DNA of 9,131 bases from Escherichia coli. Its GTDB lineage: Bacteria > Pseudomonadota > Gammaproteobacteria > Enterobacterales > Enterobacteriaceae. The position numbers and the translations under genes are program-made. Positions 7,326 through 8,447 of this stretch are shown piece after piece. Below the pieces are notes generated by a model. That model had not been told where the DNA came from and did no database searches. It was given only the letters and a program-made list of their open reading frames with translations. The stretch's first letter is position 1. Every line of letters starts with the position of its first letter. The DNA is taken from the NCBI RefSeq assembly GCF_003334785.1, contig NZ_QOWV01000034.1. One strand, 5' to 3'.

Positions 7326-8447
7326 CTATTTTTTAAAGAATGAAATAAGCTTTCTTATCCCAGTCCATATTTTCCTATCAGAATCCGAAGGGTTAAATTC
7401 GCTCTTGTCAAAATCAGCAACCTCAGCAACCTCAGCAACCTCAGCAACCTCAGCAACCTCAGCAAGGTTTATTCTATTTTGATGAGCTGTCAAATGTTCT
7501 TTGTTAATTTCATCTCTAATTAGCTGTTCTTTTTCTATGCTGTAGTTTTTGTCATTATAAGTCACATCAAAATCATCTAAGAAAACGATATAAATCAATT
7601 TAAAAAAACTAGTCTTAAATAAAAAACTATCGCACTCATCAGGAAAACCAAAAAAGAAAACATTAAGATATTTGGTTGCTTTGCGCTTGTCTTTTAGTCC
7701 ATTATAATACTTATTTGCTTCTGCTCTTTGTTTTTCATACTCACTACAGAAAAAACTCTTTTTACTTTCATCCCATTCTGAAGCATCAATTTCAAGTTTA
7801 TATGCTTGTTTGGTACCTTTCTTTCTGGCTAAAAAAGTAAGGTAATATCTATTCGAATTTATCTCCAGCCGTATATTAGATTGAATTTTACCAAAATAAA
7901 TTGCTGGCTTATTATATCTAATTCCTTCTTTATAGATGATTAGTTGAAAAGTATCTTTATAAGTTCTAACTCCATAAGGGGGAATTGATAATGGTTCATA
8001 GAGATTATCTCCATTAATGTAGTAGTCTACTACCGGTTTGATGCTTGAAGATGACACAGGGTGTACTTTACCTCCCAAATCTTTTTCATCATCTCGCGTC
8101 TGTTTGATAATTCTTCTGCCAGAAGAGTCGTAATTTCTTTCAGACACATCAAGTTTCAGAAGAGATATAGCTAATGCCGGTGGTGAATTATGCTTTTTAT
8201 TATTCTTTGAGTTACACTTATTTTTACTCTTAGGATCATGAATCTTACATCCCGGCCTATGAGTCTCTTTATATCGAAAGTATGATTGATTTAAATTTAT
8301 TTCTTTGAAGCTACATGGAGTAGCGGGTATCCTACATTTGTCATACGGGCATTCAAAAGTGGTTGTTCGTATATAAAGATCATCCATTTCCCGAAGATCA
8401 TGACCATGAACAATTTCACCACTAACAGAATCTCTTGCTATTGTCAC
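7326..8447 (-). CDS. Hypothetical protein, 373 aa, very AT-rich, N-terminal Cys/His-rich segment and C-terminal (AEV)n repeat; possible accessory defence gene
   Basis: Long ORF with strong Shine-Dalgarno (AAGGAG, 6-nt spacer) before the ATG at 8447. N-terminal HGHD...ECPYDKCRIPATPC...HRPGCKIHD. Lys/Asn-rich low-complexity stretches. Same strand and immediately upstream of qatA. No family recognised. Confidence 0.7.
   Translation of the reverse strand: MTIARDSVSGEIVHGHDLREMDDLYIRTTTFECPYDKCRIPATPCSFKEINLNQSYFRYKETHRPGCKIHDPKSKNKCNSKNNKKHNSPPALAISLLKLDVSERNYDSSGRRIIKQTRDDEKDLGGKVHPVSSSSIKPVVDYYINGDNLYEPLSIPPYGVRTYKDTFQLIIYKEGIRYNKPAIYFGKIQSNIRLEINSNRYYLTFLARKKGTKQAYKLEIDASEWDESKKSFFCSEYEKQRAEANKYYNGLKDKRKATKYLNVFFFGFPDECDSFLFKTSFFKLIYIVFLDDFDVTYNDKNYSIEKEQLIRDEINKEHLTAHQNRINLAEVAEVAEVAEVAEVADFDKSEFNPSDSDRKIWTGIRKLISFFKK
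7415..7466. repeat. Perfect tandem repeat, 9-bp unit CAGCAACCT x5 plus a partial sixth, in-frame within the 373-aa CDS (encodes AEVAEVAEVAEVAEV)
   Basis: Direct reading: units at 7415-7423, 7424-7432, 7433-7441, 7442-7450, 7451-7459, then CAGCAAG. Unit length is a multiple of 3, so copy-number change alters protein length without frameshift. Confidence 0.9.

Follow-up and report, generated by a model that had tools for sequence, protein, structure and literature searches.

When a gene lies directly ahead of a known defence operon, does it belong to that operon, or has it only been placed beside it? The question is raised by a 9,131-nucleotide stretch of Escherichia coli DNA (contig NZ_QOWV01000034.1, assembly GCF_003334785.1; this whole stretch is called the window below), in which a 373-residue protein is encoded on the minus strand directly upstream of qatABCD, the system of Gao et al. 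2020. A first-pass annotation of the same DNA had left this protein without a family and had proposed it either as a fifth Qat component or as an independent defence gene. The answer that we favour is tentative, with a probability of roughly 45%: the gene would be an autonomous single-gene module of island cargo, brought next to qatABCD when cassettes were shuffled at a hotspot close to an integrase, and not a Qat subunit.

The gene and its family

The 373-residue open reading frame at 7326-8447 is a genuine gene, and it lies exactly where the first-pass annotation had placed it. Homologues in many genera and a ratio of nonsynonymous to synonymous substitution (dN/dS) of 0.18, measured over the core against the Klebsiella and Citrobacter orthologues, make it more than a chance reading frame; the ratio is 0.10-0.14 against more distant orthologues. 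Judged from these substitution rates, the gene is under purifying selection and functional. Its GTG start is backed by the homologues, in which M1, T2 and A4 are invariant and which mostly start with ATG. The strong ribosome-binding site described earlier is also present, as AAGGAG at 8458-8453 with a 5-nt spacer to the GTG. Sigma-70-like sites in the region are no more numerous than in shuffled sequence by a consensus scan. The gene and its signals are as follows:

7326-8447, minus strand: coding sequence, assigned by sequence to a divergent PD-Lambda-4_B/Avs8B-family protein of 373 aa; GTG start at 8447-8445, TAG stop at 7328-7326
8453-8458, minus strand: Shine-Dalgarno sequence AAGGAG, 5 nt ahead of the GTG, read directly from the sequence
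8475-8504, minus strand: candidate sigma-70-like promoter, TTTAAA-18-TAGAAT, a weak consensus match

The E. coli ECOR07 locus first called PD-lambda-4, and now Avs8, has PD-Lambda-4_B (Avs8B) as its second gene; Avs8A is an Mrr-STAND NTPase that senses major capsid proteins. The 373-residue protein matches the PADLOC model PD-Lambda-4_B (PDLC03992) weakly and in part, over residues 209-288 (E 3.6e-6), and its identity to a canonical member is about 25% over a short stretch; an Enterobacter homologue matches the same model over residues 134-284 (E 7e-8). A profile of 14 close homologues, searched against 1.84 billion representative proteins, retrieved 241 relatives. Eight of ten sampled relatives match the PADLOC model nearly full length (E 3e-14 to 2e-84), among them all seven of about 290-310 residues, and the other two match it partially. 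On this sequence evidence the protein represents a divergent clade of the PD-Lambda-4_B/Avs8B family. The first-pass annotation had called for a sensitive homology search, and the outcome corrects its view that no family could be assigned: the family is listed in PADLOC and is absent from Pfam, NCBIfam and PHROGs.

The reach of the family is broad. A Foldseek search of AFDB50 finds members at E 1e-14 to 1e-22, all uncharacterised, in Proteobacteria, Actinomycetota and Bacteroidota; members are carried on plasmids as well as on islands and are sometimes left unannotated. A peptide-pattern scan of genome contigs returned five loci, its patterns being too specific. Pfam finds no domain in the 373-residue protein or in any of 116 family members, apart from faint CoiA_N hints. 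For this CoiA N-terminal domain (PF25164) none of the 116 members matches at E <= 0.001, and three faint matches (best 7e-3) leave the likeness in motifs as a lead only. The NCBIfam search gives no family for the 373-residue protein, and PHROGs gives none for it or for a canonical member, two other homologues having faint matches in their repeat regions only. A tblastn search with the 373-residue protein and a canonical member found no match in 50,697 phage genomes, which makes a phage-derived or anti-defence origin unlikely. An adhesin or surface protein was ruled out, as the protein has no signal peptide-like N-terminus and begins with a conserved zinc ribbon; the label 'procyclic acidic repetitive protein' on homologues just reflects Glu-Pro repeats.

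Relationship to qatABCD and to other neighbours

In the window, the gene stands between a VasL remnant on its upstream side and qatA, which encodes a KAP NTPase, on its downstream side. PADLOC verifies all four qat genes (2635-7194, minus strand; E from 1e-97 to 0), and these lie outside the family of the 373-residue protein. The 131-bp gap to the start of qatA at 7194 and the co-directional orientation both hold as first described:

5410-7194, minus strand: qatA (PADLOC)
4658-5410, minus strand: qatB (PADLOC)
3357-4676, minus strand: qatC (PADLOC)
2635-3360, minus strand: qatD (PADLOC)
7195-7325, minus strand: spacer to qatA, 131 bp, holding the homology breakpoints of both flanking modules

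As a general property, a fifth Qat component is not supported. A set of 80 diverse metagenomic Qat loci, with QatC 37-85% identical to that of the window, was searched with a hidden Markov model of the family; the upstream count covers the 50 loci with at least 1.2 kb of sequence upstream of qatA, and the downstream count covers 43. A family member lies upstream of qatA in 3/50, all of one lineage, and downstream in 0/43; the loci that carry none include some whose QatC is 71-74% identical to that of the window. The genes found upstream of qatA across these loci are heterogeneous, with 30 singletons. Conversely, no Qat accompanies the closest orthologues (79-82% identity): in Citrobacter and Klebsiella these come after an OLD-family nuclease, and in Citrobacter the island integrase comes directly after the gene, followed by yqgA and speC. 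The gene-neighbourhood comparison proposed in the first-pass annotation finds homologues beside many different defence systems, and beside Qat in some lineages.

The composition and the borders of the gene point the same way. Its GC content is 33%, as against 43-46.5% in qatA-D and 42% in the SLATT gene of the window, so that the AT-richness once taken to match the island does not. Homology between the window and JX2-type Qat loci starts only at the ribosome-binding site of qatA, and homology between the window and Citrobacter stops about 60 bp past the stop codon of the family gene. With both breakpoints inside the 131-bp spacer, the spacer is therefore read as the junction of two separately evolving modules. 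Published reconstructions are also relevant here. P. aeruginosa qatABCD, and qatBC of E. coli or P. aeruginosa, protect without an extra gene (PMC13279940), a locus with the family gene lying outside that study, and Qat defence has been rebuilt from qatABCD and even from qatBC (PMC13279940; PMC13376578).

Other observations favour a lineage-specific link. In E. coli, the 373-residue gene is present in 253 genomes and its qatA in 252, the two being adjacent wherever checked; all copies are at least 99% identical, and this co-occurrence therefore represents one haplotype. In strain JX2, whose Qat is divergent (85% nucleotide identity), qatA is preceded at a distance of 104 bp by a canonical PD-Lambda-4_B gene that is intact (PADLOC E 6.8e-186). 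In a third Qat lineage, of the MDK6L1/STEC313 type, qatD is closely followed by a canonical-type member, an arrangement found in three different islands. The block of family gene plus qatABCD is common to a metagenomic locus, L026 (1053-6757), and JX2 (L017:6872-12574), at 96.8% identity and with different flanks. The E. coli lineages examined leave out two genomes whose QatC DNA is 60-80% identical to the window's. In the window spacer (7195-7325), consensus scans find no terminator-like or promoter-like site, and its RNA fold is no more stable than those of shuffles.

Several further observations concern these Qat loci. The JX2 gene (L017:6964-7896; NZ_CP173160.1 1143982-1144914) encodes 310 aa and lies between a Lamassu-like system and qatA; RefSeq leaves it unannotated, calling only a 57-bp pseudogene fragment. 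The five-gene block is flanked in JX2 by Lamassu upstream and Gp2/YfjI/AlpA downstream, and in L026 by an AraC-like gene upstream and IetAS plus AbiH downstream. In another Qat lineage (L029:590-1243, L030, L031, L032; QatC 72-73% identical to that of the window), the gene 39-105 bp ahead of qatA, on its strand, encodes a DEDDh 3'-5' exonuclease. In E. coli P377 (L111:5294-6019), qatA is internally deleted, only its first 60 nt matching and the next coding sequence being annotated as QatB; this natural deletion variant retains the upstream family gene, of 553 aa.

Beyond Qat, family members adjoin Avs8A, Lamassu (with Qat), Gabija (with Qat), type I restriction-modification and McrBC, type II CBASS, an OLD-family nuclease, NERD with a large helicase, and HepT/MNT. 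One lies within the transfer region of a Vibrio pVA1-type plasmid, one adjoins an integrase cluster on a Pseudomonas plasmid, and a solitary copy (L012) is found among the suf housekeeping genes. In mobilisable islands of Enterobacter, Pantoea, Erwinia and E. coli O55:H7 the gene comes after a three-recombinase operon and before a relaxase; in E. cloacae it likewise comes after this operon, at the point where the contig ends. In islands of E. coli and Citrobacter it is convergent with YagK/YfjJ (inovirus Gp2-family) genes or integrases. Linkage to Avs8A holds for most of 157 matching E. coli genomes, 153 of which fall in the same ~78% identity band. A paralogue of the O55:H7 type (52-58% identical) is carried by 314 E. 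coli genomes, many of them O157:H7, and its recombinase-trio context was seen in the one of these genomes inspected (O55:H7). Family members usually mark the boundary between island cargo and integrase or backbone genes, and no small partner reading frame is conserved across contexts.

The island of the O55:H7 CB9615 paralogue holds three tandem recombinase genes, a relaxase and a Lamassu-like system. In recombinase-trio islands a reading frame of about 140 aa accompanies the family gene, upstream in one lineage and downstream in the other (33% identity; L005:11207-11644 versus L003:9183-9605), and it is absent from every other context.

Other features of the window are recorded here for completeness. 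Upstream of a SLATT/2TM effector gene on the plus strand (1507-2082), a nucleotidyltransferase-like partner has been lost, its place being taken by an IS3-family element (130-1343). CFT073 and P377 have this partner intact, while the annotation of strain 300709 shows a 120-bp remnant at the homologous position, beside IS629. The window (8686-9066) and E. coli STEC313 (L109) share a pheV-island hotspot, with common ImpA/VasL remnants of a type VI secretion system (T6SS) upstream and alternative cargo. In STEC313 this cargo is a different Qat lineage, then a canonical family member, a YagK remnant, an integrase and tRNA-Phe; the equivalent place in Citrobacter holds the OLD nuclease and the family gene.

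Predicted architecture and competing explanations

What the protein might do was approached from an AlphaFold2 model built on the alignment of 116 family members, over which conservation was also scored. The model (mean predicted local distance difference test score, pLDDT, 85.2; predicted template modelling score 0.78) divides the protein into these parts:

8220-8447, minus strand: predicted C2HC zinc-ribbon-like domain, residues 1-76 (C33, C38, H63, C67); invariant columns, pLDDT 88-95
8058-8219, minus strand: Lys/Asn/Ser-rich basic linker, residues 77-130, mostly predicted disordered; pLDDT 55-68 in most blocks
7536-8057, minus strand: predicted beta-rich core with the topology of an oligonucleotide/oligosaccharide-binding (OB) fold, residues 131-304; b1-b3, long helix 227-250, b4-b5, with FFxGxxD at 264-270
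Residues 305-336: helix running into the repeat (AlphaFold2 model)
7414-7465, minus strand: AEV tandem array, GCTGAGGTT on the coding strand, residues ~329-344; 9-bp unit, in-frame, (AEV)5.8, a hypervariable variable-number tandem repeat (VNTR)
7329-7385, minus strand: amphipathic basic C-terminal helix RKIWTGIRKLISFFKK, residues 355-373, a putative membrane-targeting tail; helix predicted at 355-372

Parts of this had been glimpsed in the first-pass annotation. All of its Cys/His clusters are present (H14-G-H-D, C33-P-Y-D-K-C38, P44-C45 and H63-R-P-G-C67), as are its Lys/Asn-rich linker (residues ~71-130, with 10 Lys and a net charge of +6, of low confidence or disordered in the model, except for residues 91-100 at pLDDT 91) and its repeat-bearing C-terminus, a perfect 9-bp tandem array of 5.8 copies. 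The structure prediction and fold search that it suggested yield the modelled zinc-ribbon-like domain and OB-like core, with AFDB50 relatives that are uncharacterised; one of these structural neighbours is annotated as a WYL-domain protein. C33, C38, H63 and C67 are invariant or nearly so across the 116 members, and together with F264, F265 and G267 they are conserved at >=88%, D270 being conserved at 64%. The other conserved positions are aromatic and hydrophobic core residues and the FFxGxxD motif, and no conserved acidic or catalytic motif or constellation is found in the 116-member alignment. A profile search of solved structures gives only RNase H2B at E 0.25, and Foldseek against the PDB gives matches of the same kind, none of them significant (no E below 0.027). 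The best-supported description is a non-enzymatic zinc ribbon plus OB-like barrel, which on the model is probably nucleic-acid-binding.

The length of the AEV array varies within E. coli. Matches in complete genomes are 1086 to 1618 bp long, compared with 1122 bp in the window, and for 71/79 of those listed the difference from this value is a multiple of 9; the implied AEV copy number is ~2-60, with a median of ~31. Locus L001 has 43.8 copies (L001:12983-13375). The 5.8-copy allele of the window is among the shortest and may therefore be a collapsed assembly. The AEV unit also occurs in Citrobacter, where an assembly gap falls inside the array, and the breaking of short-read assemblies by such arrays explains the 'partial' or 'frameshifted' labels on most database homologues. 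In the O55:H7 CB9615 paralogue (L106:9001-10245), a 6-bp array (GCCAGA, Pro-Glu) of 21.7 copies occupies the same protein position ahead of the same tail, and this Pro-Glu region of the sister clade matches the TonB proline-rich spacer model (E 4.6e-8). The literature was also searched for the 6-bp O157 array among the known loci of multiple-locus VNTR analysis, and nothing was found. The tail consensus in close homologues is K-I/L/V-W-x-G-x-K/R-K-x-I-x-F-F-K-K; the tail is conserved in Xenorhabdus, O55:H7 and Citrobacter, with a hydrophobic moment of 0.79.

Two other roles for the array were considered. A phase-variable on/off switch is ruled out by the 9-bp unit and the in-frame differences among the listed matches. 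Iterons or origin repeats are unlikely, since the units are short, perfect and in frame, and since the sister clade has another unit at that point of the protein. The remaining 8/79 listed matches, not multiples of 9, are annotated as frameshifted or split, and may be sequencing errors or real.

If the gene is an autonomous module, its action could be envisaged as follows. The zinc ribbon and OB core would bind nucleic acid, most plausibly single-stranded DNA (ssDNA) or an intermediate formed when an invading element replicates or is transferred. In the enterobacterial clades, the C-terminal helix would park the protein on the inner membrane, and the Ala-Glu-Val spacer (Pro-Glu in the sister clade), varying by replication slippage, would set the reach from membrane to binding domain. 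The protein would act alone as a factor that senses or sequesters foreign DNA. Cassette shuffling at the integrase-proximal hotspot would put the gene beside whichever system inserts there, which was Qat in one successful E. coli lineage; transcription may read through from the gene into qatA, and Qat would not be needed.

One competing explanation is a functional partnership with Qat, in which the family protein is a lineage-specific accessory of enterobacterial Qat loci, such as a sensor or DNA-binding adaptor for QatA, co-transcribed or acting with qatABCD. Adjacent members in three E. coli Qat lineages, in differing order and very different from one another, speak for this, as do the exact five-gene block shared by L026 and JX2, the co-directional arrangement across a spacer lacking terminator-like and promoter-like sites in the scans, and the report that QatA binds DNA (PMC13279940). 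Yet 47 of the 50 diverse loci lack the gene upstream and all 43 lack it downstream, other genes take its place (the DEDDh exonuclease in one lineage), the E. coli co-occurrence is a single haplotype, orthologues exist without Qat and Qat works without the gene, and the same family is tied to Avs8A and to the recombinase-trio island in other E. coli. Adjacency could also arise if both modules insert at the same integrase-proximal hotspot, and we regard the accessory role as unlikely. A service role for the mobile element itself is about equally doubtful: here the protein would bind or protect ssDNA during rolling-circle replication or conjugative mobilisation of the island, such as the ssDNA produced by relaxases or Gp2-like nickases, and would not serve host defence. 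The position of the gene at the boundary of cargo and backbone (recombinase trio, relaxase, integrases, Gp2-family genes, plasmid transfer region), an OB-like fold suited to ssDNA and the absence of the family from phages all fit. Against it, L012 (among suf genes), L107 and L108 have no mobile-element genes within 8 kb, the order relative to backbone genes varies with no partner conserved across contexts, many islands of the same type lack the gene, and an ssDNA-binding protein for replication or transfer has no obvious use for a membrane tail on a hypervariable spacer.

Regulation of the neighbouring defence genes, in the manner of BrxR/CapW, is less probable still. The gene is co-directional with diverse defence operons and often immediately upstream, the zinc ribbon could bind DNA, and the WYL annotation on the structural neighbour would be in keeping with such a role; but Pfam detects no helix-turn-helix or WYL domain in any of the 116 members, the gene is often downstream of a system or solitary, and a membrane-targeting tail on a long spacer would be unusual in a repressor. 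Finally, the protein might be an effector, immunity protein or regulator of the adjacent, decayed T6SS cluster: in E. coli, Klebsiella, Citrobacter and Yersinia, the TssA (ImpA_N/VasL) end of such a cluster is found upstream of the gene. The contexts largely refute this idea, to which we give almost no weight: unrelated, variable genes separate tssA from the family gene, the sister clades and canonical family have no T6SS nearby, and the family gene of E. coli is intact and conserved beside T6SS genes reduced to pseudogene remnants.

Several points weigh against the autonomous-module reading itself. Each E. coli Qat lineage examined has a family member adjacent, a block of exactly family gene and qatABCD recurs in different flanks, and the consensus scan places no terminator-like site between the gene and qatA; a lineage-specific Qat link in E. 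coli is therefore possible. Frequent integrase, relaxase and Gp2-like neighbours would also fit a mobile-element service role. Nucleic-acid binding, zinc binding and membrane association are all putative properties. Of the 'independent defence gene' first proposed, membership of the PD-Lambda-4_B/Avs8B superfamily and the many different defence neighbours stand; the defence function does not yet, as no family member has a demonstrated activity and Avs8B of ECOR07, the only tested member, was dispensable and gave no defence alone.

The ECOR07/O104:H4 Avs8B allele is, however, frameshift-truncated. The accession in the study that found Avs8B dispensable is WP_000443183.1, the Avs8-linked Avs8B of 248 aa (L019:9001-9913, E. 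coli O104:H4 2011C-3493; L021). It is a truncated form of a family protein of 303-310 aa, whose last ~55 residues, including FFxGxxD, lie in a separate 51-aa reading frame. Since the allele used was truncated, the published negative is weakened and may not cover the intact family. A bolder extension, which we consider speculative and improbable, is that PD-Lambda-4_B/Avs8B is an unrecognised immune module, dismissed only because the tested allele is a pseudogene. It might capture invading ssDNA or replicating DNA on its own, as a non-enzymatic defence protein, or serve as a shared sensing adaptor for NTPase systems (the KAP protein QatA, the STAND protein Avs8A, and the ABC-type ATPases of Lamassu, Gabija and OLD), with capture at the membrane through a slippage-tunable 'ruler' spacer in the enterobacterial clades.

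Comparison with known systems

Several known systems share parts of this organisation. With qatABCD the family gene is physically adjacent and co-directional, and the two are linked in about 250 E. coli genomes; it is nevertheless not among the four defining qat genes and differs from qatA-D in base composition. Structures of Qat have been described (PMC13279940, PMC13376578). A label such as 'qatE' would be a mis-annotation of a gene that belongs to a listed but poorly understood family.

BrxR/CapW-type regulators accompany many defence systems, and the family resembles them as a single gene beside many unrelated defence systems. It differs in that no winged helix-turn-helix or WYL domains were detected and in being frequently downstream or solitary. 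The predicted fold can be likened to zinc-containing OB-fold ssDNA binders, namely RPA70 DBD-C, the MCM10 internal domain and T4 gp32; the OB folds of gp32 and RPA70 have zinc features. At the other end of the protein, the proline-rich spacer of TonB can be likened to the (Pro-Glu)n array of the sister clade, a likeness of parts only and not of whole-protein homology, whereas the window spacer, (Ala-Glu-Val)n, is predicted to be helical and is unlike TonB's. MinD/FtsA-type proteins have C-terminal membrane-targeting helices, and the tail is likewise short, basic and strongly amphipathic, making membrane binding a putative property by analogy. The predicted architecture, in which a zinc ribbon and an OB-like barrel are joined by a variable spacer to a membrane helix, is testable. 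Short-read assemblies are broken by the 9-bp array (~2-60 copies), whose locus might be useful as a marker for typing.

The nearest relative remains Avs8B. Shared with it are a core of ~300 aa, the invariant C2HC motif, the N-terminal M..A motif and FFxGxxD, together with the defence-island setting and the lack of a Pfam family. Unlike canonical Avs8B, the window protein has ~70 extra C-terminal residues, made up of the helical repeat spacer and the amphipathic tail, and unlike the two-gene Avs8 system its gene is not beside Avs8A, which occurs only in O104:H4-type loci. No description of the breadth, architecture and promiscuous contexts of the family was found in the searchable literature, and the family is far wider than the PADLOC model suggests. 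Because PADLOC already lists PD-Lambda-4_B, the gene is not of a new kind; the window clade is a clear variant of that family, with an added repeat spacer and tail.

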